The notes under the pieces: model-generated
Database searches by the model: none
The model's input: only the letters and a program-made list of their open reading frames with translations
What the model was told of the DNA's origin: nothing
Made by a program: the position numbers and the translations under genes
Shown here: positions 23,091 to 50,990 of the stretch, piece by piece
Position numbering within the stretch: the stretch's first letter is position 1
Layout: the number at the start of each line of letters is the position of its first letter
NCBI GenBank assembly: GCA_965216685.1
Contig: OZ244195.1
Span: 209,610-273,609 of the forward strand
Source: Acidimicrobiales bacterium
Lineage (GTDB): Bacteria > Actinomycetota > Acidimicrobiia > Acidimicrobiales > SZUA-35
Length of the DNA stretch: 64,000 bases
Direction of reading: 5' to 3'

Positions 23091-24509
23091 TTACCAGCTG
23101 AAGGGACGATCGATGCCGGCCAGCTTGACCCCGGTGAAAGCCGAGGCCTCCAACGACAGCGCCCGCAGATCCTCCATCTCCAGATTGTGGACCGACGACT
23201 TGCCGCAGGCCTTGGCCAGCAGGGTGATCTCCATGGTCATGGCCGTCAGATAGCGGGCCACCCGCTCGGCCCCGGCGGCCACGTCCATCCGCTTCTCCAG
23301 CTCCGGATCCTGCGTGGTGATTCCCACCGGGCAGAGTCCGGTGTGGCAGTGGTGGCACTGCCCGGGGCTGGTTCCGAGAGCGGCGTAGTCGTCGAGATAG
23401 CGGGGACTGTTGCAGCCCAGCGACACCAGACCGGCGGTGCCGATCATCACACAGTCGGCCCCCAGAGCCAGGGCCTTGGCCGCATCGACCCCACTGCGGA
23501 TACCACCGGCGGCCACCAGCTTGACCTCATCGGCCATACCGGCGTCCTCCAGCGCTTCCCGGGCGGCCCGGATGGCCGACAGCGTTGGTATGCCGGTGTG
23601 ATCGAGGAGCAGTTCGGGCGATGCCCCCGTACCACCCTCGGCTCCGTCGACCACGATCACGTCAGCCCCGGCCTTGGCGGCGATGGCAACGTCGAATCGG
23701 GGCCGGGTGGCTCCCATCTTCACGAAGATCGGAACCTGGTAGCCGGTGGCTTCCCGCAGCTCCTCGATCTTGACCTGCATGTCGTCGGCCCCCAGGAAGT
23801 CGGGGTGGCGAACGGTGCTGCGCTGATCGACCCCCAGCGGCAGCGAACGCATCCCGGCCACCCGCTCCGAAACCTTCATGCCCAGCAACAGGCCGCCGGT
23901 GCCGGGCTTGGCTCCCTGGCCCACAACCAGCTCGATGGCGTCGACCTGACGGAGGTGGCTGAGGTCGAGCATGTAGCGGGACGGCGTCATCTGGTAGACC
24001 AGCAGGTCGGAGGCCTCCCGCTCGTCTTCCAGCATGCCGCCCTCGCCGGTGCAGGTCATCGAGCCCACCTTGGACGCCCCGTAGCCCAGGGCGGCCTTGG
24101 CCGAGGCCGAAAGCGCACCGAACGACATCGAGGCGATGTAGATCGGGATCTTCAGCTCCAGTGGCCGTTCCACCAGCCCGGGACGATCGCCCAGCACGGT
24201 GGTTGTGTCGCAGCTCTCCCGGTAGCCCTCCAAAGGCAGGCGGGTCATCGACGCCGGCACGAACGTCAGGTCGTCGAAGGTGGGGAAGCGGGAGTTGAAG
24301 GTGGTGAATCCCCGGATCTGGTAGCGACCCAGCCGGGACAGGGCGTGGACCTCGGAAATGGACTCCGGTGTCCAACGGATCGATTTGCCCCGGTCATAGG
24401 ACGACGGGACACCAGCCGGTCGGCCGTCCACCGCCCCGTCGCTGTAGGCCACCTCCTCCTCGGAGGGCATTGTGAACGGATACTCGTAACGCCCTAGATC
24501 ATCAGCCAT
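23091..24509 (-). CDS. FMN-binding glutamate-synthase-domain protein (GltB domain 2 / MgsC-like)
   Basis: MSFGALSASAKAALGYGA, GEGG, QGAKPGTGGLL, VVDGAEGGTGASP and a CHHCHTGLCPVGITTQ Cys cluster. The ATG at 24509 overlaps the upstream stop by 16 nt. Confidence 0.8.
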   Translation of the reverse strand: MADDLGRYEYPFTMPSEEEVAYSDGAVDGRPAGVPSSYDRGKSIRWTPESISEVHALSRLGRYQIRGFTTFNSRFPTFDDLTFVPASMTRLPLEGYRESCDTTTVLGDRPGLVERPLELKIPIYIASMSFGALSASAKAALGYGASKVGSMTCTGEGGMLEDEREASDLLVYQMTPSRYMLDLSHLRQVDAIELVVGQGAKPGTGGLLLGMKVSERVAGMRSLPLGVDQRSTVRHPDFLGADDMQVKIEELREATGYQVPIFVKMGATRPRFDVAIAAKAGADVIVVDGAEGGTGASPELLLDHTGIPTLSAIRAAREALEDAGMADEVKLVAAGGIRSGVDAAKALALGADCVMIGTAGLVSLGCNSPRYLDDYAALGTSPGQCHHCHTGLCPVGITTQDPELEKRMDVAAGAERVARYLTAMTMEITLLAKACGKSSVHNLEMEDLRALSLEASAFTGVKLAGIDRPFSW

Positions 24510-25192
24510 GCGCTTGCGTCCCTGCTCTCGAAGTGCCACAGCTTCTGGCCGGACACGATCTTCTTCCAGTCGCGGTCGCCAGGCCCGACCTCCAGCCCGG
24601 CCAGCAACTCATCGACCGAGGCCACTTCGGCCGCCTCCGGCTCGACCACCTTGGTGTCGACCCCCAGGCTCTTGATCGAGCCGGCCACCCAGACCTCCCC
24701 GCCCCACAGCGAGTCGCCGGTGGCCTCGCCGGCGTCGCCCAGGGCGATGATCCGCCCGTCGTGGGCCATGAATCCGGAGAGAAAACCGAGGTCGCCCTCG
24801 ATGACGATGTCGCCCCCTTTCATGGCCACACCGCAGCGGGGCCCGGCGTCGCCCTTGACGTGGACCAGGCCGCCCCGCATGGAGGCCCCAACGCTCATCC
24901 CGGAATAGCCGGCCACCGTGACCCGACCGGAGGCCATGGCTTCACCGGTCCCCCAGCCTGCGTTGCGGGTGACGGCGATCTCGGCCCCGTCGTTCAAGCC
25001 ACCGCAGTAGTAGCCGACCGAACCCTCGAATCGGACGTTGGCCCCCTCGGGCAGTGCCACCCCCAGGTTGTGACGGGATCGGGTGTCGGTGACCACGATG
25101 GTCCGCCCGGCGGCGGCCAAGGCCCGGATCTCGGCGTTGATCTCCCGGATCGGACGCTCGCCGACCTCCACAGTGGTCTCGGTCACGGTCAT
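24494..25192 (-). CDS. GXGXG-motif protein (glutamate synthase alpha-subunit C-terminal domain / MgsB-like)
   Basis: This is the last 232 codons of the 566-aa track ORF. It carries repeated G-x-G-x-G beta-helix motifs (GSVGYYCGGLNDGAEI, GWGTGEAMASGRVTV, GMSVGASMRGGLVHVKGDAG). ATG 25192 overlaps the upstream TGA (ATGA). Confidence 0.75.
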   Translation of the reverse strand: MTVTETTVEVGERPIREINAEIRALAAAGRTIVVTDTRSRHNLGVALPEGANVRFEGSVGYYCGGLNDGAEIAVTRNAGWGTGEAMASGRVTVAGYSGMSVGASMRGGLVHVKGDAGPRCGVAMKGGDIVIEGDLGFLSGFMAHDGRIIALGDAGEATGDSLWGGEVWVAGSIKSLGVDTKVVEPEAAEVASVDELLAGLEVGPGDRDWKKIVSGQKLWHFESRDASAWLMI

Positions 25193-26157
25193 CGGGCCGA
25201 CCCCGCCCCGGCCGATCCGGCGCCGGCCATCGAGCGAACCGACCAGACCTTGGTCAGGCTGGGCCCGTCGTAGTTGGCCATCTCGACGTCGTCGAGGTAG
25301 ATCTTGCGGACCGCCTGCTCCTCGGTGGCCACCGCCAGGGTGCCGCTCTCCTCCTCCACCGCCACCAGGGGTTTGATGGCGAAGGGATCCTTGGCGAAGG
25401 CCATCGAGTCGATGGTGGCCAGGATGTAGGTGAAGCAGCCGTCGAGTTTGATCACCGAGTCCTCCAGCGATTCCTCGATCTTGTGGCCCTTGGCCATCTG
25501 GTCCGACAGCCAGATGGCGATCAGCTCGGAATCGTTGTCGGTCTTGAAGTCGTAGCCGGCCCTGATCAGCCGGCCTTTGAGCAGCTGATAGTTGGTGAGC
25601 TGTCCGTTGTGGACGATGGCGATGTCGGGATACGGCCGGGCCCAGAACGGATGGGAGGCGGTGGGCGAGACGAACGACTCGGTGGCCATACGGGCATTGG
25701 TCAGACCGTGGGACCCCACGAAGTCCCTGACCCCGTGTTTGTCGGCCACCGTGTACCCGTCTCCCAGGTCCTTGATGATCTCCAACGATCGACCGACCGA
25801 TTGGATCTCGAAGCCATCGATGTGATCGGCATCGGCCAGCCACTGTTCGAAGGTGGAGGTGGGGTCGGTTATCTCCAGGCGGACTGAAACATGGTCGGTG
25901 GTGTCGTCGTCCCAGGTCGGCTGGCCGATGAAGTCGGAGCCGTGGCTCCGTGCTATGGCCAGGAAGGTTTCGAGGTGGTCGGACAACGACGCTCTGTCGG
26001 CCACCACCCGCACGACGTAGGAGTCGGTGCGGGGTTCGCCGTACATGCCGAAGCCGGTGGAGTCGGCCCCCCGGTGCCGTTGGGCCTGAATCAACTCGAC
26101 CAGGTCGGCCCCGATAGACCCGTGGGGGCAGAGTATCCGGCCTGCTATGCCGCACAT
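25189..26157 (-). CDS. class II (Ntn) glutamine amidotransferase-domain protein (GltB domain 1 / MgsA-like)
   Basis: ATG 26157 gives the MCGIAG N-terminus (nucleophile Cys2) and lies 6 nt after an AAGGAG site. The track start at 26163 is a TTG two codons upstream. Confidence 0.75.
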   Translation of the reverse strand: MCGIAGRILCPHGSIGADLVELIQAQRHRGADSTGFGMYGEPRTDSYVVRVVADRASLSDHLETFLAIARSHGSDFIGQPTWDDDTTDHVSVRLEITDPTSTFEQWLADADHIDGFEIQSVGRSLEIIKDLGDGYTVADKHGVRDFVGSHGLTNARMATESFVSPTASHPFWARPYPDIAIVHNGQLTNYQLLKGRLIRAGYDFKTDNDSELIAIWLSDQMAKGHKIEESLEDSVIKLDGCFTYILATIDSMAFAKDPFAIKPLVAVEEESGTLAVATEEQAVRKIYLDDVEMANYDGPSLTKVWSVRSMAGAGSAGAGSAR

Positions 26158-26213
26158 CGGCAACTCCTTCCGCTCGGCGGATCCTCGGGATCATCGAGGA
26201 TCCAGACGAGTAC

Positions 26214-26228
26214 TGAATACAGTATACG
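26214..26228. promoter_or_regulatory. operator-like palindrome, copy a (TGAATACAGTATACG)
   Basis: It lies 57 nt upstream of the MgsA-like start. It is one of four related 15-mers in this window. Confidence 0.55.
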
Positions 26229-26270: not shown

Positions 26271-26891
26271 TCAGCCCAACCCCTCGCACCGGTCGAGCAG
26301 ATGCTCGAGCAGATCGACGTGATCCCGCACCTCGCCCTCCTTGAAGGGCACGGTGTAGGGCGGTAGTGGGGGGAAGTAGACGGCGGTGATGGTTCCCGCC
26401 AGCGGAACCAGTTCGATGTGTACACCGCCCGGATCATGCACCACCGACATCGACTTCAGTTCGGACCGACCGGCCAGCTGCCGGGTTTCCTCATCGGCCA
26501 AGGCCTCGGCCACGTCCCGGGCGGAATCCAGGGCCTTGGTGGCGAAGGCGCGGCGGTCGAAGCGGTAGTTGTAGCGGGCCGCCCGCTCCCCCGGCTCGCC
26601 CTTGCGGGCGATCCACTGGGTGTCGATCAGCGCCCCGAACAGCCGGAAGTTTCCCTTGAATCCCACTTCGATGGTCGCACCGTCGGGCCGCACGGTCCGT
26701 GCCGACCGGTAGTCGACCTCGTCAAAAACCACGTGGTCGGCACCGTAACGGCGAACCAGCTCGCCGTGGGGAAGCTCGATGAGGGAGCGGCGCCGGGCCC
26801 GATAGAGCGTCCGGACACGACCACCGAGGCCGAGAAAGGTGGACCCGGTGTCAAAACCGGATCCACCCTCGGTTCGAGTCCTGCCGGTCAT
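26271..26891 (-). CDS. DUF3156-like hypothetical protein
   Basis: This is the last 206 codons of the 339-aa track ORF. ATG 26891 overlaps the permease TGA (ATGA). The family assignment is from memory only. Confidence 0.45.
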   Translation of the reverse strand: MTGRTRTEGGSGFDTGSTFLGLGGRVRTLYRARRRSLIELPHGELVRRYGADHVVFDEVDYRSARTVRPDGATIEVGFKGNFRLFGALIDTQWIARKGEPGERAARYNYRFDRRAFATKALDSARDVAEALADEETRQLAGRSELKSMSVVHDPGGVHIELVPLAGTITAVYFPPLPPYTVPFKEGEVRDHVDLLEHLLDRCEGLG

Positions 26892-28312
26892 ACAGTCTGA
26901 TGAAGTTCCTCTTCGAGATGATCGGCCTGGCCCGACGAGCCCCGCATGGCATAGGAGATGACGGCCACGACGGCCGAACCCAGGATCATCCACAGAGCCC
27001 GCGGCCCGTAGAAATCGTGGCCGCCTCCGGTGAAGGTCTGATACCACACATACACGGTGAGCAGAAAGCCGATCACCGGCACCACCAGTGGCAACTTGAA
27101 AGGCCGGTTGACGTCTGGGTTGACGTAGCGGCTGCCCGCCACCAGCACGTGGTAGGTGATGTAGAGCAGCATCCAGACGTAGGCGGCGGTGAAGATCAGG
27201 TCGCCGACCCCGGCCCCTCCGTCGGCCACGATCCCCCAGTAGATGGTGACGAAGGTGTAGAGCACGGCGGTGAACAGGATGGCCACCCACGGCGTCCGGT
27301 AGCGGGCGTGCACACTGCCGAACGGCTTCGACAACGGACCGAGGAAATGGCCGTTGCGGGACATGCCGTAGAGGATGCGGGGCATCGAGGCGTAGACCAC
27401 GGTCAACGAGGCGAAGGAGGCCACGGTGGCGGCCAGCGCCATCAGGAAGCGGCCGCTACCGCCGAACATGGCCTCACCGACCTCGAGCTGGGGGGCGTCC
27501 TCGGAGACGATACCGGCCCACTCGGAGTTGATGCCACTGACACCCAGTCCCATGAACATCGAGGTGGCCAGAATGGCTATCAACCCCCAGACGATACCCC
27601 GGGGGATGTTGCGGGCCGGATCCCTGGTCTCCTCGGCCAGGGGGGCCACGAACTCGATGCCGACGAAACTCCAGAAGGCCCAGGCCCCGGCGATGGCCAT
27701 CAGGCCGCTCAAGCCGCTGAACTCGGCCGGTGTCGACGGTATGTTGCCCCACGACCAGCCACCGAGGTCGCTGAACCCAAGGAATCCGGCCAGCCCGAAG
27801 AACCAGCGGATGGCCAGCATGACGATGATCAGGCCCAGCTCCAGCTTGGCCAGCACCTCGATGCCGAACAGATTGGGAATCACGGCGAACACCGTCAGGA
27901 TCAACACCCACATGGTGACGCTTCCGCCGTCGAACAACCCGACCATGCCCGAGGCTCCGGCCAAGGTCTCACCGGCGCCGGCGAACATGAACATCACATA
28001 GAACAGCAGACCGAGGAAGATGCCGACCACGGTCTTGGCCGCATGCCCCCCGGGGGTGGCGGCGGCGCCGTAGTCGTACAGTGCTCCGGCCTTGGGATAG
28101 GTGGTCGACAGCTCGGCCGCCGACAGACCCAGCAGCAGGTTCACCACGAACATGGCCAACAAGCCCACGGCAAAGCCCCGGCCGGCGGTGAACCATCCCT
28201 GGAAGTCCGATACCAGCGTGGAGGCCGCCACCACCAAGCCGACGCCGGCGGCGAATATGTCCTTCGTGCCGAGAGCCTTTTTCAGGCCCTCCCCCTCAAC
28301 GACAGCAGTCAT
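26888..28312 (-). CDS. APC-family amino acid/amine permease
   Basis: About 12 hydrophobic segments and 474 aa, with an AAGGAG site 7 nt upstream of the ATG. Confidence 0.8.
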   Translation of the reverse strand: MTAVVEGEGLKKALGTKDIFAAGVGLVVAASTLVSDFQGWFTAGRGFAVGLLAMFVVNLLLGLSAAELSTTYPKAGALYDYGAAATPGGHAAKTVVGIFLGLLFYVMFMFAGAGETLAGASGMVGLFDGGSVTMWVLILTVFAVIPNLFGIEVLAKLELGLIIVMLAIRWFFGLAGFLGFSDLGGWSWGNIPSTPAEFSGLSGLMAIAGAWAFWSFVGIEFVAPLAEETRDPARNIPRGIVWGLIAILATSMFMGLGVSGINSEWAGIVSEDAPQLEVGEAMFGGSGRFLMALAATVASFASLTVVYASMPRILYGMSRNGHFLGPLSKPFGSVHARYRTPWVAILFTAVLYTFVTIYWGIVADGGAGVGDLIFTAAYVWMLLYITYHVLVAGSRYVNPDVNRPFKLPLVVPVIGFLLTVYVWYQTFTGGGHDFYGPRALWMILGSAVVAVISYAMRGSSGQADHLEEELHQTV

Positions 28313-28429: not shown

Positions 28430-29047
28430 TCAGACGTCGAACGCCGACCAGCAGATCTCGTTGCGTAGGCGTTGATCGTCGAGAACAAGTGAGCGAATCG
28501 CATCGGGAAGCTGTTCACGCTGCCAGCGACACTCGGCCCGCCCGGCGGCCACCTGGTCGTCAGTCAGGGTTCCGGCCGGTACACCGGCCGGGGCTCCGGC
28601 CACGGACTCGGCCACGGCATCGGCCCATACCGCCTTGATGGCGTAGGCCGCGGCGCCGAGCTCATGGGCGGCAACATGGGCCACAGCCGCGGCGTGGCCG
28701 GCGGCGTAGGCGGCGTGGCGGGACGCTCCGCTCAGGGGTTGGGCTGCTCGCATGGCCCGGGTTCCCGCCGAACGGCACTCCATCATCTTCATCTGGCCGC
28801 CGGCCCAGGACCGGATGGCCGCGATCGCCTCCCGAGGCCTCCGGTCAGCCGGTTGCTCGGACTCGAAGAAGTGAAGCACGTGGGCCGCACAATCCGCCGC
28901 CCACTCAGCCAGCAGTCGATGATTGGCGTCGCTGAGGCTACCGCCCCGCCGGATCGTGACGAAACGAGGGTCTCGCTTCTCCGGGAGGATCACGGCCTCG
29001 TACCGATGGTCAGGCTCGTCACCCCAGCTCGGCGGCCACGACGGCAT
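28430..29047 (-). CDS. conserved helical hypothetical protein (resembles the putative-immunity / Imm-5-like family)
   Basis: The pattern LLAEWAADCAAHVLHFFE...DRRPREAIAAIRSWAGG...HAAAVAHVAAHELGAAAYAIKA is recalled from a widespread uncharacterised family. Confidence 0.35.
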   Translation of the reverse strand: MPSWPPSWGDEPDHRYEAVILPEKRDPRFVTIRRGGSLSDANHRLLAEWAADCAAHVLHFFESEQPADRRPREAIAAIRSWAGGQMKMMECRSAGTRAMRAAQPLSGASRHAAYAAGHAAAVAHVAAHELGAAAYAIKAVWADAVAESVAGAPAGVPAGTLTDDQVAAGRAECRWQREQLPDAIRSLVLDDQRLRNEICWSAFDV

Positions 29048-29417
29048 CGACCTCGATTTCCACCATCATGCCCGGCGTGGTCAGGCCCGCCTCGAAGCCG
29101 GTCATCACCGGCTCGATACCGGCAAAGACCTCGCCGTGGGCCCGCACCGCGTCGCCCGCCCCGGCCATGTCGGAGAAGATCAGCCTGGTCCGGACCACAT
29201 CGCCCAGCTCTGCCCCCACGTCGTTGAGAGCCTGCTCGATCCGCTTCGGGGCATAGCGCGTTTGGGCGTAGGCGTCGCCCGGAGCGTGTAGCCGCCCGCT
29301 GGGTTCGATGGCCGTGGTTCCGGCCACGAACACGAACGGCCCCACCCGCTTGGCCCGGCAATACGAGCCGGCCTTCTCGAACCGGCCACCTCCATAGGCC
29401 TTCCGGATCTCAACCAC
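29019..29417 (-). CDS. RidA/YjgF-family reactive-intermediate (enamine/imine) deaminase
   Basis: 132 aa, with FVFVAGT...G......Q......N........G....DVVRTRLIF and a C-terminal MVEIEVDAV. Confidence 0.75.
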   Translation of the reverse strand: MVEIRKAYGGGRFEKAGSYCRAKRVGPFVFVAGTTAIEPSGRLHAPGDAYAQTRYAPKRIEQALNDVGAELGDVVRTRLIFSDMAGAGDAVRAHGEVFAGIEPVMTGFEAGLTTPGMMVEIEVDAVVAAELG

Positions 29418-29436: not shown

Positions 29437-29466
29437 GCGGCTAGTCTGAATGCGGCTAGTCTGAAT
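29437..29466. repeat. perfect 15-bp tandem direct repeat (GCGGCTAGTCTGAAT x2)
   Basis: Read directly from the sequence. The second copy supplies the left half of operator copy c. Confidence 0.8.
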
Positions 29467-29476
29467 ACAGTACTCA
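29462..29476. promoter_or_regulatory. operator-like palindrome, copy c (TGAATACAGTACTCA)
   Basis: It sits in the divergent region between the ridA-like gene (start 29417) and the GntR gene (start 29510). Confidence 0.55.
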
Positions 29477-29509: not shown

Positions 29510-30178
29510 ATGATGTTTCAGAGCCTGAAACGCTCGCCCGTCCGGCTGGCCGACCTGGTCTACGAACAGATCTTCCGAGCCATCGTCAACGGCGACCTTG
29601 CTCCGGGCGAGCGCCTGGTGCAGGAGACCATCGGTGAGCAGATGCAAGTATCCCGGACTCCGGTCCGCGATGCCCTGCTCCGGCTGGAGTCGGAGGGCAT
29701 TCTGGAGTCGTCGGGCCGGGGCGGCTACCTGGTTCGATCGTTCGATCGGCAGGAAGCCATCGACATCTACGGCCTGCGGGCCGCCGTCGAGGGTTACGCC
29801 GCCGGGGTGGCAGCCGACCGGGGCGACCAGGCCGACCTGGAGCTGATCGAGAAGGCCATCGCCGAGGCCGACGGCAACAACATCTCGCTCGACGAGGGAT
29901 TCGAGATCAATCGTCGCATTCACCGGGGTGTGGTGCTGGCCGCCCGCAACGCCATGCTGCTCGACGCCTTCGACACCGTGTGGGGTCGCAGCCAGTCGTT
30001 CCGGATGTTCGCCCGCCTTCATTCCCCCGAGCTGCGATACCTCAACGCCGAGCCCAGCCACGACCAGGTGCTGGCCGCCATCCGCACCGGCGATGCCGAT
30101 CATGCCCGGCGAACCATGGAACAGCACATCATGGTCGGCATGGCCCAACAACTCGAGGCCCTCCCCGACGACATCTGA
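29510..30178 (+). CDS. GntR-family transcriptional regulator (FadR/FCD subfamily)
   Basis: An N-terminal winged HTH (LADLVYEQIFRAIVNGDLAPGERLVQETIGEQMQVSRTPVRDALLRLESEGIL) and an all-helical C-terminal domain. Confidence 0.85.
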   Translation: MMFQSLKRSPVRLADLVYEQIFRAIVNGDLAPGERLVQETIGEQMQVSRTPVRDALLRLESEGILESSGRGGYLVRSFDRQEAIDIYGLRAAVEGYAAGVAADRGDQADLELIEKAIAEADGNNISLDEGFEINRRIHRGVVLAARNAMLLDAFDTVWGRSQSFRMFARLHSPELRYLNAEPSHDQVLAAIRTGDADHARRTMEQHIMVGMAQQLEALPDDI

Positions 30179-30187
30179 GCCGGCGTC

Positions 30188-31390
30188 TCATTGGTGCCAA
30201 CCATCGAGACGTCGACGCACGGCGGCGGCCGCTGCCTCCAGGGCCTGGCGCTCCCCCTCGACCAGTGGCAGTTCCACCACCTCCAACACGCCGCCCCGCC
30301 CCAACAGGGCGGGCACGCCGACCACGACGTCACGAATACCGTAGGCCCCATCCAGCACCACCGAAACCGGGATATGACCCGGCCGCGCCCCCCGCAGGGC
30401 GTTGAGCACCTCCACGGTGGCGTAGGCCGGAGCAATGGTGGCCGAACCGGTCCGCCGCAGCGCCACCACGTCTCCCCCGCCGGAAACGGCCTGGTCGACA
30501 CAACGCTGGATCTGCTCCTCGGTCAACATCGCCGACAGGGGCCGGCCCTGAATCGTCGACTGCGAAACCACGGGCACCATCTCGGCCCCGTGGCTTCCCA
30601 GGGTCAGGGCCTCGACGTCGGCCACATCCACCTCGGCGGCGGCGGCCAAGGCCCGCCGGAAACGGGCGGAATCAAGGGTGCCGGCCATCCCGATCACCTT
30701 CTCCCGGGCAAAGCCGCTCTCGGTGTACATCGTCATGGTCATCTCATCGAGGGGATTGGTGATGACGATCACCACCGCCTCGGGAGCATGGGCCACCACG
30801 GCCTCGGCCACCGACCGGACCACCCGGCCGTTGAGCTCCACCAGATCGGACCGGGACATACCCGGCGAGCGGGGCCGACCGGCACTCACCACCACGACGT
30901 CGGCCCCGGCCACCAACGACAGATCGGTACCGCCTGACACCTCGGTCGTCGACCGGGTCACCCCCGAAGCGTGATTCAGGTCGAGGGCCACCGAGGCGGC
31001 CCAGCCGGGCACGATGTCGATGAGTACGATCTCGGCCGACAGCGAGTCGGCGGCGGCCAGCAGAGCGGTGTTGGCCCCCACTCCCCCGGCGCCGACGAAG
31101 GCCACCTTGTCGAACACGATGGGGTTGAGCCCGACCGGAGCGGCCGGTGACATCCAGCCGGGATTGCGTCGGTAGAGGGCACGGCGCATGGCCGTGGCCC
31201 CGCCGACCTGGGGAACGGCCGGCTGTTCGGCCGGCCCCCGAACGAAGCTGATACCCAGCCGCTCGGCGCTGTCGCGGGCTTGACCGGTGATCAGGTCGCC
31301 GTCGCTAAACGAGATTCTCGTCTCCCCCCGCCGGCGGGCGGCCTGAACGTCTTCGTCGCCGATGACCCGGCCCCGGCCGCCGTCGCTCAC
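30188..31390 (-). CDS. LDH-like malate dehydrogenase with a ~95-aa N-terminal extension
   Basis: The core KVAFVGAGGVGANTA, GRPRSPGMSRSDL (Arg-type, malate specificity), ITNPLDEMT and GSHGAEMVP begins about residue 95. The GTG start overlaps the BMC-T stop (GTGA). Confidence 0.75.
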   Translation of the reverse strand: MSDGGRGRVIGDEDVQAARRRGETRISFSDGDLITGQARDSAERLGISFVRGPAEQPAVPQVGGATAMRRALYRRNPGWMSPAAPVGLNPIVFDKVAFVGAGGVGANTALLAAADSLSAEIVLIDIVPGWAASVALDLNHASGVTRSTTEVSGGTDLSLVAGADVVVVSAGRPRSPGMSRSDLVELNGRVVRSVAEAVVAHAPEAVVIVITNPLDEMTMTMYTESGFAREKVIGMAGTLDSARFRRALAAAAEVDVADVEALTLGSHGAEMVPVVSQSTIQGRPLSAMLTEEQIQRCVDQAVSGGGDVVALRRTGSATIAPAYATVEVLNALRGARPGHIPVSVVLDGAYGIRDVVVGVPALLGRGGVLEVVELPLVEGERQALEAAAAAVRRRLDGWHQ

Positions 31391-32031
31391 TCCTGTCGAC
31401 CCTCGATCGATTCGATCGTGGTGACGGCGGCCTCCATGGCCGTCTCCACCGCCGATTCGGTGCCGGAGAAGAAGGCCCGACCGAAGCGGCCCACGGCCCG
31501 CACCTCGACCAGGTCGATGTCGGCCGATTTCTCGGCTTCATTGACGGCGGCCCCCACGTAGGCCGCCGGACTGCATTCCACGATGCCCAGGGTCTGTCCC
31601 GGCACCAGGAGGGAACCCGACCGCCACTTGTTCAACAACTGAGCCTGGTAGGGCTCAACCGAGGTGATGACCTGAGTCGACTCCAACCGCGGTTTCACCC
31701 GATCATTGATCGACAGTCCCAGCATGTCGAGCACGGCGTCCCGGGCGGCCGAGATCTCGGCGTTGACCGGCGACCGGAGGATGAAGAAGCCGAACTCCCG
31801 CTCGACGATCTGGGTGGTGGCCTCGATGGTGGCCGCCTTGAGCGCGGTGTCGATGACCCGGAACACGGTGTTGCCGGGAGCGAACTCGCCCATCAGGATG
31901 GTGTCGCCGGCCAGTGGGATCGAACCCTGGACGGTGGCCCCGTTGTAGGCGGCGAACTTGGGTTGCAGCCGGTTGATCTGCAGCAGGGCCCGCATGGTCA
32001 ACGGGCTGGTCACCCCAGCGTTCCGGCTCAC
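31387..32031 (-). CDS. BMC-T shell protein (tandem BMC domains)
   Basis: Two BMC-like halves: GDTILMGEFAPGNTVFRVIDTALKAATIE...FILRSP and LGIVECSPAAYVGAAVNEAEKSADIDLVEVRAVGRFGRAFFSGTESAVETAMEAA. GTG 32031 overlaps the AldDH TGA. An ATG at 31995 is an alternative start. Confidence 0.7.
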   Translation of the reverse strand: MSRNAGVTSPLTMRALLQINRLQPKFAAYNGATVQGSIPLAGDTILMGEFAPGNTVFRVIDTALKAATIEATTQIVEREFGFFILRSPVNAEISAARDAVLDMLGLSINDRVKPRLESTQVITSVEPYQAQLLNKWRSGSLLVPGQTLGIVECSPAAYVGAAVNEAEKSADIDLVEVRAVGRFGRAFFSGTESAVETAMEAAVTTIESIEGRQE

Positions 32032-33416
32032 GTTTGATCCTCCCCGTAGACGTCGAAGATGGTGCGCCACGGCCGCGACTCGTAGACCACCCGTTTGATG
32101 TTGATCAGATGGAGAGCGTTGACGTTGTCGGACACGATCGAACCCGACCCGGTTCCGGTGCCCAGCATGAAGCTCGGTTCGAGGTCGGAGGAGTAGCCCA
32201 TGGCGGCCATGAGCGCCGGCTGATTGACCACCACCCGGCCGCTGGGGAGCCGGGCAAAGCGGGACACCACCGAGGCGTCGTGGCTGTGGATCACCGCGGT
32301 GTGACCGACCCCGCCCCAATCCAGGATCCGGCCGGCCAGATCCAGCCCGTGGTCGACGGTGGCCGCCTCGTACCAGGCCAGCACCGGGTTGAGTTTCTCC
32401 AGGCTCAACGGCCGGTGGCGGCCGACCTCGGTCTCGGCGGCCAGCAGCACCGTGGTGCCGGGCGGGATGTCGAACCCGGCCCGTTGGGCCAGGGTTTGGG
32501 CCGACTGGCCTACGCCGCCCGGTCGGATGTGCTGGGACTCGTCGAAGATCACATCGGCCAGTCGCTCGGCTTCAGCCGGACTGCAGAAATAGCCTCCCCC
32601 CTGCCTGATCTCGGCCCGGAGGGCGGCGGCGATGGACCGGTCGACGATGACGGCCTGCTCCCCGGCACAGGCCGTGCCGTAGTCGAAGGCTTTGGAGATG
32701 AGGATCTGCTCGGCCACGTCGGCCACCTCGTCGACCATCGACTGGTGGACGTAGCACGGCACGTTGCCCGGACCGACGGCCAGTGTCGGTTTACCCGACT
32801 GGTGGGCGGCCCGGACCATGGCCGATCCGCCGGTGGCCATGATGATGGCCGTCTTCCGGTGCCGCATCAGAGCATCGGTGCCCTCCAGCGTGACCTCGTC
32901 GAGGCACTGGATCAGGCCGTCGGGTGCGCCGTGGTTGCGGGCGGCCTCGGCCATGACCCGGGCCGTCTCCCGACCGCAGTTCACTCCCCGGGGATGAGGA
33001 GCGCAGACAATGGCATTGCCCGACTTGATGGCCGACAGAACCTTGAAGATGATCGTCGAGGTCGGGTTGGTCACCGGGATGATGGCGGCCACCACCCCCA
33101 TCGGTTCGCCCACCGCCATTGTCCTGGTGTTGGCGTCGTGCCACAGCACCCCGAGGGTGGTGATGTTGCGCAGCCAGTCGGCCACCCCCCGGGCGTTGAA
33201 CAGGTTCTTGATCCGCTTGTCGGGGGCGTTGCCGTAGCCGGTTTCCTCGGCCGCCATGACGCCCAGCCGGGCGGCCTCGGTTTCGATGGCCTGGGCCATG
33301 GCCTCGACGATGCGGTCGATATGCTCCGGTGGCGTGCCCCGGAACTTCTCGAAGGCGACGTGGGCCGACTCCACCGCCTGGCGTGCTTGGGCGATGCTTC
33401 GCAAATCGGCATCCAT
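32028..33416 (-). CDS. CoA-acylating aldehyde dehydrogenase (PduP/EutE-like)
   Basis: This is the last 462 codons of the 914-aa track ORF, starting MDADLRSIAQARQAVESAHVAFEKF. It has IIPVTNPTST, a catalytic Cys context (DYGTACAGEQ), VGPGNVP, and lacks the long oligomerisation tail of non-acylating ALDHs. Confidence 0.8.
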   Translation of the reverse strand: MDADLRSIAQARQAVESAHVAFEKFRGTPPEHIDRIVEAMAQAIETEAARLGVMAAEETGYGNAPDKRIKNLFNARGVADWLRNITTLGVLWHDANTRTMAVGEPMGVVAAIIPVTNPTSTIIFKVLSAIKSGNAIVCAPHPRGVNCGRETARVMAEAARNHGAPDGLIQCLDEVTLEGTDALMRHRKTAIIMATGGSAMVRAAHQSGKPTLAVGPGNVPCYVHQSMVDEVADVAEQILISKAFDYGTACAGEQAVIVDRSIAAALRAEIRQGGGYFCSPAEAERLADVIFDESQHIRPGGVGQSAQTLAQRAGFDIPPGTTVLLAAETEVGRHRPLSLEKLNPVLAWYEAATVDHGLDLAGRILDWGGVGHTAVIHSHDASVVSRFARLPSGRVVVNQPALMAAMGYSSDLEPSFMLGTGTGSGSIVSDNVNALHLINIKRVVYESRPWRTIFDVYGEDQT

Positions 33417-34591
33417 CACGACCACCCGATTCCCAGGCTGTCGATGGTTCTCCGGACCGTGCCCATGGAGTCGGCCCGGATACCGATGCGATCGAGACGG
33501 CGACCGGCCGAGTCCAGGTCGCCGCCGAGGACGGCCTTGGCCATGTCGATCATCGAGCGGGTGGCGGGAACGTCGATACCGGCCGGCTCGGCCGCCGACG
33601 CCAGCGGCACCAGCGATCCCAACACGGCACAACGCAGCCGGGACCGGGCCTCGACGGCAGTAGGAATCGTTCGGCCTCCCTCCTCGCTCCCGTCGCCCAC
33701 CACGGCGGCGATGGTGGCCGCCGGATCGGGGAGATCCCGGACACCCCACCGTTCGGCCACCCGGCGGCGCTCGTCGACCAACCGCTCGACCAGCTCGACC
33801 TGACCGGGTTGGAACCGGGACGCCATGCTGGCCCCGGCCAGGGCCACCGCCCCCGGAGGCAGGTCGGGAGACTCGTCGAACACCGGACCCCCGACCAGCA
33901 GGGCCACGGCCTCCACCGCCCCCGAGTGGTCGGCGAAGCTGGAGTGGATGACGGTCGGAGCCGAGACGATGGAGGGAAAGAACCGTTGCAGGCCGGTCAC
34001 CACGGCGTCGAGTGAACTGGGCAGGGTGGCCACCATCGGGTCGACACCGGGATGGAAGTGCAGTACGTGATCGCGGCGCTCCAGCCCGAAGGGCAGGGCC
34101 GACATCTCGGCCACCGTCACCCGGTTGGAGGCACCTCCCACCCGCAACCACCAGGTGGTCTCCAGTGCTCCGAAGGTCCGCCCGGGGGCCACCAGGAGAA
34201 TCTGATCCTCGGCCAGCCGGTCGGCCAGGACCAGGCCGTAGGTCCGTTGCTTCAGGACGGTGCCGGTGACGACGATCAGATCGGCCCCGGCGACGGCCTC
34301 CTCCAGGATCGAGGTCACGGCGATGTGGGGTCCGTCGCCTTGGGTCTGGTAGGTGCCGATTGGACCGGCACCGCGCACGGTGACACCCCGGGCCAGCCGG
34401 GCCAGGTCGTCCTGGTAGACCGAGAACAACGAGACCCCACCGGCCCCGTTGGCCAGGAACCAGGCGGCCAGGGCTTGGCCCTCGATCCCGCCGCCCAGGA
34501 CGGCGACCCGGTCGATGACCGGTTGGGGTTCGGGGGGACGCTGGTCGTCGGTGAACGACTCCAGCACGGCTTGAAAGTCGGCCGAGGTCAT
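33416..34591 (-). CDS. opine (octopine/nopaline)-dehydrogenase-family NAD(P) oxidoreductase with a short N-terminal helix plus Pro-rich linker
   Basis: Rossmann motif VAVLGGGIEGQALAAW, then LIVVTGT..., then LVAPGRTFGALET...VTVAEMSALPFGLERR...VATLPS. This parallels the PG.TGGALE...ET.S.LF..R...A.LP pattern of opine dehydrogenases. Confidence 0.6.
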   Translation of the reverse strand: MTSADFQAVLESFTDDQRPPEPQPVIDRVAVLGGGIEGQALAAWFLANGAGGVSLFSVYQDDLARLARGVTVRGAGPIGTYQTQGDGPHIAVTSILEEAVAGADLIVVTGTVLKQRTYGLVLADRLAEDQILLVAPGRTFGALETTWWLRVGGASNRVTVAEMSALPFGLERRDHVLHFHPGVDPMVATLPSSLDAVVTGLQRFFPSIVSAPTVIHSSFADHSGAVEAVALLVGGPVFDESPDLPPGAVALAGASMASRFQPGQVELVERLVDERRRVAERWGVRDLPDPAATIAAVVGDGSEEGGRTIPTAVEARSRLRCAVLGSLVPLASAAEPAGIDVPATRSMIDMAKAVLGGDLDSAGRRLDRIGIRADSMGTVRRTIDSLGIGWS

Positions 34592-34608: not shown

Positions 34609-34893
34609 TCAGTCAGCCTGAGGCAGGATCGACTCCACCTCGGCCGACGGGCGGGGGATGACGTGGACCGAGACGACGTCGCCCACCTTGTTGGCGGCCA
34701 CCGCCCCGGCGTCGGTGGCGGCCTTGACCGCGCCGACTTCACCTCGGACGAACACCGCCACCAGGCCGCCACCCACCTTCTCGCTGCCCACCAGCGTCAC
34801 GTTGGCCGCCTTGATCATGGCGTCGGCGGCTTCCACCGCTGCCACCACACCTCGGGTTTCGACCATTCCAAGCGCAACTTGCTCCATTGTCAC
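34609..34893 (-). CDS. BMC-H shell protein (PduA/CcmK-type hexamer)
   Basis: [57 protein letters not shown] is a canonical BMC domain. Confidence 0.9.
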
Positions 34894-35201
34894 TTTCTCC
34901 TCTTCGGTTTCTCCGAACTCCGGTAGACCGACGTTCCGGCGTGTACCACTTCATCGAGAATCATCACCACGGCGGCATCGACCGCCCGGCCCCGGCTGGC
35001 CGCCGGCTGCCGAGCCGCCGATCCGGTGGTCACCAGGACCCAGTCACCGACACCGGCCCCCAGATCGTCGACCGCCACCTCGCCCGGTTGCTGCACCTTG
35101 CCGGCGCCGTCGACCAGGTCGACGACCAGGAGCTTGCGGCCGGCCAGGCCTTCGGCCTTGATCGTGCCGGTCACGGTGCCGACGATGCGGCCGATCCTCA
35201 C
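34890..35201 (-). CDS. BMC-P vertex protein (EutN/CcmL-type pentamer)
   Basis: [27 protein letters not shown]....G......[23 protein letters not shown]....DAAVVMILD is a canonical EutN/CcmL pattern. Confidence 0.85.
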
Positions 35202-35204
35202 CGG

Positions 35205-36491
35205 TCAGAACCTCCGCAGGTAACGCGCCGTTTCCACCGGCGTCACCTGCTGGGCCATGAACTCGATCTCCCGCTCGGCCTGCCCGATCCAGATGCCGAG
35301 GAGATCTTCCCCCAGCAGATCGGCCACGAACTCCGATTCCCGAGCTGCGGCCACGGCGGCCTCGATGGTCACGGGAATGGGTTGGGCCTCGCCGTTCTCG
35401 TAGGCGTTGCCCAGGTCGGGATCGCCGGGATCGAGATCCTCCTCGATTCCCCGTAGACCGGCGGCGATCTGGGAGGCCAGTAGGTAATAAGGGTTGGTAT
35501 CAGCCGAGCCGTCGCGCTGTTCGATGCGGACCGCGCTGTCGTGGCCCTCGATGACCCGGAGGCCGACGGTGCGGTTGTCGTATCCCCAGGCGTTGTTGGT
35601 GGGGCAGAAGGTGTAGGGCTGACGGCGACGGTAGGCGTTGGGGGTGGACGCCGACAGCAACGCCGTTTCCGCCATGTGTCGTCTCATGCCGGCCAGATAC
35701 TGGCGGCCGATGGCCGACAGCTTGCCGCCATCGGCGAAGATGTTCTTGCCGTCGCGCCAGGCCGAGTGATGGACGTGGAATCCCGAGCCGGACTCCTCGA
35801 AGAACGGCTTCGACATGAAGGTGGCGACGTAGCCGTTGGCCACCGCCAGTTGTTTGATCATGCCCCGGAAGGCCACCACGTTGTCGGCGGTGGCCATGGC
35901 TTCGCCGTAACGGATGTTGACCTCGACCTGACCGGCGGCGTACTCCGGGTTCGACTGTTCGATGGGGATGCCGGCGGCGGTGAGGTCGTTGCGGATCGGA
36001 CCGAGGATCGATTCCAGCTCCATGGCCCGTTCCAGGCCGTAGACCTCGATGCCCGAGTCGCGGGGCCGCAGGGTCTCGGGGTCGAGCAGATAGAACTCGA
36101 GTTCGGCTCCGATGGAGATCTCCAGCCCCATGTCGGCCGCTTTGTCGGCCACCTTGAGCATCACGTTGCGGGGGTCGATGGGGCAGGGTGCGCCGTCCTC
36201 GGTCTGAACCTTTCCGGGACAGAAGGCGGCGCCGGGATCCCAGGCCATGGGCCGCACCTCGTCCGAGTCGGGGAGCACGAAGATGTCGGGGTAGCCGGTC
36301 TCGAAGTTGGTGTAGGGCGTGTCCCAGATGTCGCATGTCATGTCGAGAGCGAAGATGGCGTTGGACATGGCCATGCCGTGCTCGGCCACAGTGGGCCAGT
36401 GACTGGCCGGGATGCGTTTGCCCCGGAGGATGCCGTTGGTGTCCCCCACGCCCAGGACAACGGTGTGAATTCCCTCGGGCAGCTGGCTCAT
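35205..36491 (-). CDS. glutamine-synthetase-family gamma-glutamyl-amine ligase (GmaS/PuuA/GlnA3-like)
   Basis: GS catalytic-domain motifs are present (GAELEFYLLD, NPEYAAGQVEVNIRY, KPFFEESGSGFHVHHS, NAYRRR). It is the first gene of the BMC operon. Confidence 0.75.
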   Translation of the reverse strand: MSQLPEGIHTVVLGVGDTNGILRGKRIPASHWPTVAEHGMAMSNAIFALDMTCDIWDTPYTNFETGYPDIFVLPDSDEVRPMAWDPGAAFCPGKVQTEDGAPCPIDPRNVMLKVADKAADMGLEISIGAELEFYLLDPETLRPRDSGIEVYGLERAMELESILGPIRNDLTAAGIPIEQSNPEYAAGQVEVNIRYGEAMATADNVVAFRGMIKQLAVANGYVATFMSKPFFEESGSGFHVHHSAWRDGKNIFADGGKLSAIGRQYLAGMRRHMAETALLSASTPNAYRRRQPYTFCPTNNAWGYDNRTVGLRVIEGHDSAVRIEQRDGSADTNPYYLLASQIAAGLRGIEEDLDPGDPDLGNAYENGEAQPIPVTIEAAVAAARESEFVADLLGEDLLGIWIGQAEREIEFMAQQVTPVETARYLRRF

Positions 36492-36594
36492 TTGTTCTCC
36501 TCGTGCATGGTTCCCCCAATGCCGTAGTCGTTGGTCCCCGGTTCGTCTCCCACCGGAGCGGCTCTGATCGCGGCTTGCCCTACCCTACATCGAC

Positions 36595-36609
36595 TGAATA
36601 CAGTATTCA
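36595..36609. promoter_or_regulatory. operator-like perfect palindrome, copy d (TGAATAC-A-GTATTCA)
   Basis: It lies between the divergent GS-like/BMC operon (start 36491) and the FAD oxidoreductase gene, ending 2 nt before that gene's ATG at 36612. Confidence 0.6.
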
Positions 36610-36611
36610 AT

Positions 36612-37754
36612 ATGCCTGAAGCCGACGTTGTCATCGCCGGAGCCGGCATCGTCGGACTGTGCACCGCCCGCGAGCTTCAGGCCGCCGGGGCCGACGTCAT
36701 GCTGGTCGACCCATGGGAGCCAGGCCACGCCCGCCAGGCGTCAGCCGGCATCCACCGGGTCATCCGCTCGACCCACGGCAGCGATGAGCTGTACACCCGT
36801 TGGGCCCGGGAATCACGGCTGCGGTGGCTGGAGATGCAGGCCACCACCGACACCCCCATCTACCACGAATGCGGGGCCGTGGTCCTCGCCGCCGAAGGCC
36901 ACGACGAATGGGAGATGGCAACCATCCCGACCTTCGACCGGCTCGGCATCCCCTACCTGCGCCTGTCACCCGATGAGCTGGTGGTTCGCTTCCCCACCTT
37001 CGACCCCCGGCAGGTGGCCTTTGCCCTCTACGAACCGGAGGCCGGCTTTCTCTGGTCCCGCAACATCGTGCGCAAACTCTACGCCGACTTCCTGACCGCC
37101 GGCGGGCGGTTCCGGCGAACCCGGTTGACCGTGTCCGACGACGAGCGGCCGCTGCTGGAGGGCCGACCGGTGGAGGCCGAACACACCGTCATCGCCAACG
37201 GGGCGTGGATGGGATATCTACTGCGCTCCTCCCTGGGTCGCCTGCTGCGGGTGGTCCGCCAAGACATCATCTACACCAGCGTTCCCGAAAACGACGACCG
37301 CTGGCACGCCGACCGCCATCCGGTCTGGATCGACCACGGCTACGGGGCCTACGGCATCCCCGACGCCGGAGGCTACGGCTTCAAGGCCGCCATTGCCTGG
37401 CATGAGTCCGACATCAGGCTCGACGACGACGACCGGGTGGTCGATCGGGCCTCCATGGCCCGGTCCCAGCAGTATTTGGGTTACCGCTTCCCCGACATCG
37501 CCGGGCAGGCCATCGTCGACCAGAAGGTATGCCAGATCGTCATGACCCCCGACACCCACTTCCTGCTCGACACCCACCCTGAGCATTCCGATGTGATTCT
37601 GGCCGGTGGCGGATCGGGGTCGATCTTCAAACACGGCCCGGTGGTCGGCGCCTACGTGGCCGGCATGGTTCAGGGCCGCTGGCGGCCCGACGACCGTTTC
37701 ACCCTGGCCAACCGGCGAAGCCTGTCGATGGCCGAATCCCCCTCCGGCCGCTAG
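36612..37754 (+). CDS. FAD-dependent amine/sarcosine-oxidase-like oxidoreductase (DAO family)
   Basis: ATG 36612 gives MPEADVVIAGAGIVGLCTARELQAAGADVMLVD (a dinucleotide fold at the N-terminus). The track start at 36531 (TTG) would put the palindrome inside the coding sequence. Confidence 0.75.
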   Translation: MPEADVVIAGAGIVGLCTARELQAAGADVMLVDPWEPGHARQASAGIHRVIRSTHGSDELYTRWARESRLRWLEMQATTDTPIYHECGAVVLAAEGHDEWEMATIPTFDRLGIPYLRLSPDELVVRFPTFDPRQVAFALYEPEAGFLWSRNIVRKLYADFLTAGGRFRRTRLTVSDDERPLLEGRPVEAEHTVIANGAWMGYLLRSSLGRLLRVVRQDIIYTSVPENDDRWHADRHPVWIDHGYGAYGIPDAGGYGFKAAIAWHESDIRLDDDDRVVDRASMARSQQYLGYRFPDIAGQAIVDQKVCQIVMTPDTHFLLDTHPEHSDVILAGGGSGSIFKHGPVVGAYVAGMVQGRWRPDDRFTLANRRSLSMAESPSGR

Positions 37755-50918: not shown

Positions 50919-50990
50919 GGATCAACGATAGCCAACGACCGGGCGAGCAGGCCGCCTGGGCCGGCCGATTGCCAAGGTGGATCGCCGGGA

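Follow-up and report, generated by a model that had tools for sequence, protein, structure and literature searches.

A split MgsABC-like gene trio and a MIC2-type microcompartment locus under a putative common operator in an Acidimicrobiales bacterium

We analysed a 64,000-nucleotide stretch of the genome of an Acidimicrobiales bacterium (contig OZ244195.1; hereafter the window), in which three coupled genes at 23091-26157 encode a class-II (Ntn) amidotransferase, a GXGXG beta-helix subunit and an FMN glutamate-synthase domain. An earlier note on this DNA, made from the sequence alone, had described the trio and placed it in an amine pathway of the N-alkylglutamate type; Pfam matches and the overlaps between the genes confirm the three coupled genes themselves. 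With moderate confidence, we read the trio from its homologies as a split amide-nitrogen transferase of the MgsABC type within a GntR-controlled regulon for small amines or amino alcohols, the aldehyde of which would be handled in a microcompartment of the catalogued type MIC2.

The trio and its reading frames

The first gene of the trio (25189-26157, minus strand; 322 amino acids (aa)) encodes an MgsA-like glutamine or gamma-glutamylamide amidotransferase, as judged from Pfam GATase_7 (8e-16) and GATase_6 (2.4e-14). It starts at ATG 26157-26155, 7 nt downstream of AAGGAG, and its product begins with M-C-G-I-A-G, the cysteine being residue 1 once the methionine is removed; the glutamine-site motifs RMATES, HNGQLTN and TDNDSE can all be read in the sequence. 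An ATGA overlap (25192-25189) couples its stop to the start of the MgsB-like GXGXG gene (24494-25192, minus strand; 232 aa; Pfam GXGXG 9.3e-14), which ends with TAG at 24496-24494. The MCGIAG N-terminus behind AAGGAG and this overlap had both been pointed out in the earlier note, and both are present.

The MgsC-like FMN subunit (23091-24509, minus strand; 472 aa; Pfam Glu_synthase 1e-93) most likely starts at ATG 24509, giving a 16-nt overlap with the GXGXG gene. The same frame also has a GTG, at 24539, and we prefer the ATG because the N-terminus that it opens (MADDL..YEYPF) is conserved in relatives. The subunit carries a four-cysteine motif, GCNSPRY...CHHCHTGLCPVG, and a conserved, clade-specific N-terminal extension of about 40 aa. 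We considered this extension as an encapsulation signal of the trio and rejected the idea, as it is also found in shell-less genomes.

The G+C content of the window is about 65-66% and long spurious open reading frames (ORFs) occur in every frame; most of the coding frames were identified by third-position G+C. Over the trio, such ORFs include one of 566 aa at 24494-26194 and another at 23187-24497 on the plus strand, as sequence of about 66% G+C yields them. Third-position G+C of 0.82-0.87 marks the coding frame of two of the three trio genes, while the frame of the GXGXG gene, on which the scan was indecisive, rests on its Pfam match.

A putative shared operator and a MIC2-type shell locus

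The 12-mer CTGAATACAGTA has exactly three matches in the window, against 0.02 expected. One copy lies upstream of the trio (26213-26224), the second in the divergent region between the RidA and GntR genes (29461-29472) and the third in the divergent region between a glutamine-synthetase-like ligase gene and a flavoenzyme gene (36594-36605), 6 nt ahead of the flavoenzyme ATG. The third copy sits within a perfect palindrome, TGAATAC-N-GTATTCA, of which the other two are imperfect versions. Dozens of related loci of Alphaproteobacteria, Gammaproteobacteria and Acidimicrobiia carry the motif CTG[A/T]ATACAGTA, placed just 5' of the amidotransferase gene, between the flavoenzyme and ligase genes, or past RidA and ahead of an ABC transporter. 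Judged from these positions, the trio shares the putative operator with the ligase, the flavoenzyme and the shell operon, an association that is conserved across phyla. A GntR/FCD-family regulator (29510-30178, plus strand; Pfam GntR and FCD) is the candidate protein that would bind these TACTGTATTCAGTA-type sites. The proposal in the earlier note that the trio is co-regulated with a GmaS-like ligase and an FAD amine oxidase thus has a basis in the sequence as far as co-regulation goes, and fails in the identity of the ligase, which is discussed below.

Between the first operator copy and the ribosome-binding site of the trio lies a perfect 9-bp inverted repeat, GGATCCTCG-N7-CGAGGATCC (26179-26203), which has no T-run and could be a second regulatory element. 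The RidA/GntR intergenic region (29440-29472) also contains a short direct repeat, GGCTAGTCTGAATGC / GGCTAGTCTGAATAC, which gives a partial extra operator half-site beside the full second copy.

According to Pfam, NCBIfam and PDB searches, the trio belongs to a 14.7-kb island set between housekeeping genes, with ClpP and an RNA methyltransferase on one side and RdgB, RNase PH and MurI on the other. Within each operon, neighbouring genes are joined by GTGA and ATGA overlaps. The shell operon, on the minus strand, opens with the ligase (35205-36491; Pfam Gln-synt_C 4e-84), followed by a BMC-P shell pentamer protein (EutN/CcmL; 34890-35201; Pfam EutN_CcmL 1.6e-24), a BMC-H shell hexamer protein (34609-34893; Pfam BMC 4e-27) and a 391-aa enzyme (33416-34591), which we regard as the candidate signature enzyme and which is assigned below, by phmmer, AlphaFold and Foldseek, to the opine-dehydrogenase fold. 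Next come a CoA-acylating aldehyde dehydrogenase of the EutE/PduP type (32028-33419; Pfam Aldedh), which scores 468 bits against the NCBIfam model for acetylating acetaldehyde dehydrogenase and does not reach its cut-off of 620, and a tandem-domain, CsoS1D-like BMC-T shell protein (31387-32031; Pfam BMC, with orthologues matching CsoS1D_N plus BMC). The last gene encodes a malate-dehydrogenase-type enzyme (MDH; 30188-31390), extended by about 94 aa at its N-terminus, which passes NCBIfam NF004863 (324 bits, cut-off 283) and has arginine at the position that discriminates lactate from malate dehydrogenases (PRSPGMSR). GTGA overlaps join the BMC-T gene to the MDH gene on one side and to the stop of the aldehyde dehydrogenase gene on the other. 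Divergent from the shell operon, on the plus strand, lies the flavoenzyme gene (36612-37754; 380 aa; Pfam DAO 8e-42), of the monomeric sarcosine oxidase (MSOX) family.

This gene set corresponds to that of MIC2, a microcompartment type of which the function is left open in the accessible part of the catalogue (Sutter et al. 2021, PMC8217296, Supplementary Data 2). The MIC2 entry there comprises an aldehyde dehydrogenase without encapsulation peptide, an N-extended Ldh/Mdh, a pfam00120 ligase, a '6-phosphogluconate-dehydrogenase-like' (6PGDH-like) protein bearing a short N-terminal helix, and no phosphotransacylase (PMC8217296). Our locus has a single BMC-H, a single BMC-P and a single double-domain BMC-T, the aldehyde dehydrogenase, the N-extended Ldh/Mdh, the 6PGDH-superfamily protein and the ligase, and no phosphotransacylase; moreover, one of the MIC2 genomes in the catalogue, 'Rhodobacter lobularis', yielded an orthologue. 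By gene content, the shell locus of the window is therefore of the MIC2 type. Our assignments go beyond the catalogue in two places, since the '6PGDH-like' protein is resolved here as a predicted opine-dehydrogenase fold and the Ldh/Mdh-family enzyme as MDH. The trio, the sarcosine-oxidase-like enzyme, RidA, the transporter and the GntR operator go unmentioned in the accessible parts of the text and supplements of that paper (PMC8217296), and in later MIC2 literature we found no mention of the trio, the flavoenzyme or RidA in a MIC2 context. Searches on MIC2 function, on microcompartments in Roseobacters, SUP05 and Acidimicrobiia, and on links between N-alkylglutamate, opine dehydrogenase and microcompartments likewise returned no characterisation of this system. 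Among the ten key proteins, all of which were run against NCBIfam equivalogs, only MDH passes its cut-off, so that no function can be transferred by a curated model.

The remaining genes of the island precede the trio on the minus strand. A 206-aa protein (26271-26891), with no Pfam or NCBIfam match, has copies (40-55% identity) only in Acidimicrobiia loci, always directly before the trio. Its gene shares an ATGA overlap (26891-26888) with that of an APC-family amino acid or amine permease (26888-28312; Pfam AA_permease_2 7e-24). The same RidA-permease operon includes RidA itself (29019-29417; enamine/imine deaminase family; Pfam Ribonuc_L-PSP 9e-19) and an Imm5-like protein (28430-29047; Pfam Imm5_like 6e-32), an 'immunity protein' family that is odd inside a catabolic operon.

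Two other places in the window hold genes of related families. A minus-strand cluster at 40267-43852 encodes a flavin amine oxidoreductase (PF01593), a DUF1365 protein and a cyclopropane-fatty-acid-synthase-like methyltransferase. This cluster stands outside the regulon and is to be kept apart from the FAD amine oxidase named in the earlier note; its amine oxidase gene (42449-43852) was rejected as a regulon member because the amine oxidase-DUF1365-CMAS cluster has no operator. A second, stand-alone FMN glutamate-synthase-domain gene (49383-50921, minus strand; Pfam Glu_synthase 2e-77; 32% identical to MgsC) has neither an amidotransferase or GXGXG partner nor an operator copy.

Relatives of the trio and of its partner enzymes

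As references for the N-methylglutamate pathway we used the clusters on plasmid p2 of Aminobacter niigataensis (L004; L numbers denote the loci compared) and plasmid p2 of Thioclava sp. (L086), both of which have the order mgsA-mgsB-mgsC-glnT(gmaS)-mgdABCD. As the earlier note had it, the trio has the MgsA-MgsB-MgsC arrangement: it shares with these glnT- and mgdABCD-linked MgsABC the three separate subunits, their order and, with the Aminobacter references scanned in the same way, an identical Pfam architecture (GATase_6/7, GXGXG, Glu_synthase), and in both a ligase of the glutamine synthetase (GS) family adjoins the trio. Aminobacter MgsA, MgsB and MgsC share 31, 37 and 55% identity, respectively, with their counterparts in the window, and Thioclava MgsC likewise shares 55% with the FMN subunit. 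When plasmids were searched with the FMN subunit, the best matches (52-56%) were FMN subunits of trios, several of them confirmed beside glnT, whereas GltB and other FMN glutamate-synthase family members on plasmids reached 28-34%. In addition, a 16-residue insertion is common to the window subunit and MgsC and absent from GltB. Clustering with assimilatory glutamate synthases, which the earlier note had named as an outcome that would speak against its proposal, is thus not what we find.

The FMN subunit has its 120 best database homologues, at 81-96% identity, in Acidimicrobiia, Arenicellales, Alphaproteobacteria and marine metagenomes; within the clade, its conservation is 79-96% across Acidimicrobiia, Alpha- and Gammaproteobacteria. 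In a neighbour-joining tree of 60 sequences, which is distance-based and rough, the window clade, with shell-bearing and shell-less members together, stands apart from the MgsC group of Aminobacter, Thioclava, Acinetobacter and Paraburkholderia, and both are far from short-motif GltB-like families. A search of protein representatives (50%-identity clusters, best match 63%) seemed too coarse to contain a representative specific to this clade and served only as a source of sequences for this tree. This tree of the FMN subunit sets the window clade off from GltB-like families, in line with the earlier note, and does not place it within the canonical MgsC group.

The four-cysteine motif, GC-N-[S/T/A]-PRY...CHHCHTGxCPVG, is invariant in about 70 clade members examined. 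Three of its four cysteines align with the 3Fe-4S ligands of GltB (alignment to Bacillus subtilis GltA, 7mfm), and the fourth is also present. MgsC of Aminobacter, Thioclava and Acinetobacter has no cysteine at this position, and a glnT-linked MgsC of Paraburkholderia retains CHHCHTGxCPVG; for this reason, we rejected the cysteines as a clean discriminator from MgsC. The window trio differs from the reference MgsABC in its separate clade, the invariant motif, the conserved extension of the FMN subunit, a partner ligase other than GlnT/GmaS, the absence of mgdABCD, and its ties to a monomeric sarcosine-oxidase-like enzyme and a microcompartment.

The GS-like ligase falls below every NCBIfam cut-off, with 219.8 bits against the GlnT/GmaS equivalog TIGR03105 (cut-off 469.6), 204 against the GlnA model (429) and 208 against the PuuA equivalog (650). 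It is 28% identical to Aminobacter GmaS and 36-38% identical to annotated IpuC, its nearest annotated relatives, and 56% identical to the ligase of an Ipu-like cluster on plasmid pML2037 of Mesorhizobium loti NZP2037. Its best PDB match is 5dm3, which we take to be the ethanolamine ligase (gamma-glutamylase) of C. salexigens; among the PDB matches, 7cql and 9qur, which are GmaS structures, come lower than 5dm3 and others. By these comparisons the ligase is probably a gamma-glutamyl-amine ligase and is not a GmaS orthologue. The M. loti cluster (L093, 7990-17455) also contains a zinc-dependent alcohol dehydrogenase, a hydrolase, a cytochrome P450, a 2Fe-2S reductase, an APC permease and a PuuD-family hydrolase.

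The flavoenzyme aligns end to end with MSOX (1el5), its best PDB match. Its cysteine in ...QKVCQIV... aligns with that in ...GAVCMYT... of MSOX, and its HRVIRS aligns with TRIIRH; these MSOX residues are presumably the flavinylation site Cys315 and the Arg49/Arg52 pair that binds the substrate carboxylate. Its best NCBIfam matches, N-methyltryptophan oxidase (180 bits) and soxA_mon (131 bits), are both below cut-off. The earlier note had expected a cleaving enzyme related to sarcosine oxidase, and this holds for a monomeric flavoenzyme, not for the heterotetrameric N-methylglutamate dehydrogenase, which is found neither in the window nor in the 80 related loci described below.

The 391-aa enzyme matches CENDH (1bg6) by phmmer over its full length (2e-11; 22% identity). 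An AlphaFold model built on an alignment of 55 homologues (pLDDT 93.5) retrieves 1bg6 in Foldseek (E 9e-21; TM 0.75/0.83), followed by 3c7d, 3iqd and 6c4l; octopine, yersinopine and pseudopaline dehydrogenases are among the top hits. The enzyme is thus predicted to have the two-domain opine-dehydrogenase fold. JGI names its homologues 'opine dehydrogenase', and PF02317, which gives 20.4 bits on the window protein (gathering score 30), is recorded for many orthologues. In the model, residues 3-14 are helical and lead into a linker, which is the layout of an encapsulation peptide; the helix looks like such a peptide. The family of MSOX and N-methyltryptophan oxidase and that of the opine dehydrogenases both act on N-substituted amino acids, the product type of an Mgs-type enzyme, by breaking or making their C-N bonds. 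The window enzymes differ from MSOX and from opine dehydrogenases (CENDH 1bg6, octopine dehydrogenase 3c7d) in falling below the curated family cut-offs, and the 391-aa enzyme further differs from opine dehydrogenases in its N-terminal helix, typical of microcompartment cargo.

A genome scan gave 190 matching stretches, of which we kept the best 80 (79-89% identity), mostly contigs of metagenome-assembled genomes (MAGs); cultured carriers include Ruegeria, Lentibacter, Falsiruegeria, Tropicibacter, Aliishimia and Microbaculum. Acidimicrobiia MAGs match the window at 88-89% identity and have the same gene order. Context was read over 10 kb on each side by tblastn with the window and reference proteins, with full flanks available for 53 loci. 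In these 53, the ligase is found in 42, GntR in 41, RidA in 37, shell genes in 34, and the flavoenzyme, the opine-dehydrogenase-like 391-aa gene and the aldehyde dehydrogenase in 30 each. Conversely, MgdB, MgdC and MgdD (Aminobacter queries) were found in none of the 80 loci and MgdA gave a single weak match (23%); in the window, none of the four has a tblastn match. In the relatives, the ligase copies share 53-71% identity with the window ligase and 26-35% with GmaS.

The proteobacterial gene order is strikingly constant: GntR diverges from amidotransferase-GXGXG-FMN subunit, in places followed by a class-I amidotransferase, which faces the flavoenzyme; beyond the flavoenzyme, and divergent from it, run ligase, BMC-P, BMC-H, 391-aa enzyme, aldehyde dehydrogenase, BMC-T, MDH and RidA, and then a HAAT-type ABC transporter, which replaces the APC permease. 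Against PDB and NCBIfam, the binding protein of this transporter has only weak matches of the Leu/Ile/Val type, which give no clue to its ligand. Loci anchored on the 391-aa enzyme have the trio within 10 kb in five cases out of seven.

Shell-less loci take other forms. Arenicellales have GntR-trio-ligase plus a PuuD-like hydrolase, and Rhodospirillaceae-type MAGs have RidA-ABC transporter-trio-ligase. In three alphaproteobacterial MAGs (L031, L033 and L034, two labelled Rhodospirillaceae and one Sneathiellales), the operator motif lies between the genes of a 483-aa flavin amine oxidase, whose nearest model is L-pipecolate oxidase, and an aminobutyraldehyde-dehydrogenase-like enzyme, a few kb from the trio (e.g. 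L033:16444-19337). This pair looks like a non-encapsulated counterpart of the flavoenzyme/shell-operon pair. The pairing of a flavin amine oxidase with an aldehyde dehydrogenase thus recurs in the shell-bearing and these shell-less forms and, as the operator here stands between an amine oxidase and a conventional aldehyde dehydrogenase, the pathway appears to make an aldehyde in either form.

Single loci show further genes. In an alphaproteobacterial-type genome (L001:11549-12151), a cupin gene of the dimethylsulfoniopropionate-lyase family directly follows the trio, and several unrelated genes lie between the trio and a shell operon 8 kb away. In another MIC2 locus, which has an insertion sequence beside the flavoenzyme gene, two amidase-signature genes (PF01425) follow the ABC transporter (L090:19545-21191); their presence might indicate that some lineages take up an amide.

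A candidate pathway and its alternatives

From the observed genes, families, coupling, shared operator motif and conserved synteny, we infer by homology the substrate, each chemical step, including the N-alkylglutamate intermediate, and the set of encapsulated proteins. The amine would enter through the APC permease, or through the HAAT-type ABC transporter in Proteobacteria, and the GS-like ligase would convert it with ATP to a gamma-glutamyl-amide. The Ntn subunit of the trio may then hydrolyse this amide and pass the amine to the FMN subunit, where it would condense with enzyme-bound 2-oxoglutarate and be reduced to an N-substituted glutamate, with the GXGXG subunit in a structural role; tunnel-type amide transfer of this kind is the accepted mechanistic model for glutamate synthase. 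Oxidative cleavage of the N-substituted glutamate to glutamate and an aldehyde could be carried out by the sarcosine-oxidase-like flavoenzyme, by the opine-dehydrogenase-fold enzyme or by both, and RidA may speed imine hydrolysis. Inside the shell, the CoA-acylating aldehyde dehydrogenase would turn the aldehyde into acyl-CoA, and MDH would re-oxidise the NADH. Since the ligase is nearest to IpuC-type enzymes, we favour C2-C4 amines or amino alcohols as substrate. The suggestion in the earlier note that the step which releases an aldehyde could account for the encapsulation fits these data, as the regulon has an aldehyde dehydrogenase with or without a shell.

Going further, MIC2 could be an aerobic, B12-independent small-amine metabolosome, with gamma-glutamylation in the cytosol, an iron-sulfur MgsABC-like transfer, release of the aldehyde within the shell by the opine-dehydrogenase-fold enzyme acting as an 'N-substituted glutamate dehydrogenase', and an oxaloacetate/malate NAD+ shuttle across the shell through encapsulated MDH in place of the usual alcohol dehydrogenase. 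We put this forward as a tentative possibility.

Several findings weigh against the reading of the trio as an MgsABC-type transferase tied to the compartment. By its sequence relationships, the trio branches as a sister to canonical MgsABC and lies outside that clade. The invariant four-cysteine motif suggests external electron transfer, for which the mechanism of N-methylglutamate synthase has no need. Trio and shell appear to be separable modules, since no shell lies within 10 kb in 19 of the 53 trio loci and no trio within 10 kb in two of the seven shell loci, namely that of 'Ca. Rhodobacter oscarellae' and another in which an insertion sequence adjoins the flavoenzyme gene. Regarding the 391-aa enzyme, the region of the catalytic histidine of CENDH aligns to ...GAVEAVA..., with a histidine four residues upstream (in an alignment of 22% identity), and the catalytic residue is thus not clearly aligned. 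Moreover, opine dehydrogenases normally oxidise a carboxylate-bearing carbon, which a simple N-alkyl group does not have. Finally, many loci contain a class-I amidotransferase or a PuuD-like hydrolase, which fits a scheme of the Puu/Ipu type in which the gamma-glutamyl group is a protecting group only.

Such a pathway, modelled on the Puu, Ipu or Eto routes (putrescine, isopropylamine and ethanolamine), is the alternative that survives best, although we consider it rather unlikely. The substrate would be a diamine, an amino alcohol or a hydroxylated alkylamine, its other end would be oxidised to an aldehyde by the flavoenzyme and further by the aldehyde dehydrogenase, and the trio would act late, removing or transferring the amide nitrogen instead of, or beside, a PuuD/IpuF-type hydrolase. 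These routes also begin with an ATP-dependent GS-like ligase, followed by a flavin oxidase or dehydrogenase and an aldehyde dehydrogenase, and the relatives of the ligase in annotated IpuC and in the M. loti cluster point the same way. PuuD-like or class-I amidotransferase genes are found in Arenicellales, in Thioglobus and in 15 Roseobacter-type loci, and the aldehyde dehydrogenase of shell-less loci resembles aminobutyraldehyde dehydrogenase. A P450 gene adjoins the locus in several Acidimicrobiia relatives (L006, L008, L021 and L069), and its products are 40-43% identical to the P450 of the M. loti cluster. For ethanolamine, a gamma-glutamylation route of this type is known from Phaeobacter, C. 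salexigens and A. tumefaciens (PMC10132767). Nevertheless, the Pfam scan of the window reveals no PuuD/IpuF-type hydrolase (Peptidase_C26), no P450 and no alcohol dehydrogenase, and the scheme gives no necessary role to the universally conserved trio. The known routes have neither the GATase-II/GXGXG/FMN trio nor a shell, and their aldehyde dehydrogenase is not CoA-acylating. Furthermore, the families of the flavoenzyme and of the opine-dehydrogenase-fold enzyme act on secondary amines, unlike PuuB, which acts on primary ones.

The trio and the ligase could also be a split, ferredoxin-type glutamate synthase with its own GS-like partner, a dedicated pair that re-assimilates the ammonia from amine catabolism. 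The three domains of GltB and ferredoxin-dependent glutamate synthase (FMN domain, GXGXG domain and Ntn amidotransferase) are all present, the FMN-site motifs are invariant in the clade, as are the cysteines that align with 3Fe-4S ligands, and a GS-family gene nearly always adjoins the trio. We regard this possibility as improbable, as the window enzyme is split over three genes in a different order and is only about 30% identical to GltB, as against 55% to MgsC. Its amidotransferase is of another subfamily: Pfam finds only GATase_6/7, and the GltB-type GATase_2 (PF00310) and the GltB central domain have no match anywhere in the locus. The GltB equivalog NF008730 gives 132 bits (cut-off 1047), no electron-input partner (GltD, or a fused or separate ferredoxin) lies in the locus, the ligase is nearest to amine ligases and far below the GlnA cut-off, and two conserved enzymes of secondary-amine families would be left without explanation.

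The canonical N-methylglutamate route from methylamine, in which formaldehyde would be the aldehyde that is encapsulated, is the methylamine case mentioned in the earlier note. It can claim the mgsABC gene order, a co-regulated sarcosine-oxidase-family enzyme and the JGI/KEGG-derived name 'methylamine-glutamate N-methyltransferase subunit C' on some clade members, but it is very improbable, because the trio clade stands apart from the MgsC of mgdABCD-linked clusters, including one from a marine member of the Rhodobacterales, mgdABCD is missing from the window and its relatives, the ligase does not reach the cut-off of the GlnT/GmaS equivalog and lies closer to alkylamine ligases of the IpuC type, with other GS-like proteins ranking above the GmaS structures, the locus has no C1-transfer genes (purU, folD and the like), unlike the Thioclava cluster, and the partner dehydrogenase is of the acetylating aldehyde dehydrogenase type.

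None of these models, including the MgsABC-type reading that we prefer, explains the Fe-S-type cysteines of the trio or the co-presence of the flavoenzyme and the opine-dehydrogenase-like enzyme.

MIC2 has been a catalogued microcompartment type without a known substrate or signature enzyme, and it now has a first testable pathway. Conserved synteny and the putative operator tie it to the ligase, the MgsABC-like trio and the sarcosine-oxidase-like enzyme, and structure prediction identifies its presumed cargo enzyme, which bears a helix like a targeting peptide, as an opine-dehydrogenase fold. The label 'methylamine-glutamate N-methyltransferase subunit C' is probably over-specific for this clade, and so is methylamine use inferred from metagenomes on its basis. 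The module, which is very well conserved, is found in abundant marine lineages (Roseobacters, SUP05/Thioglobus, Arenicellales and Acidimicrobiia) and in several cultured strains, and it may be a neglected path by which dissolved organic nitrogen is turned over.

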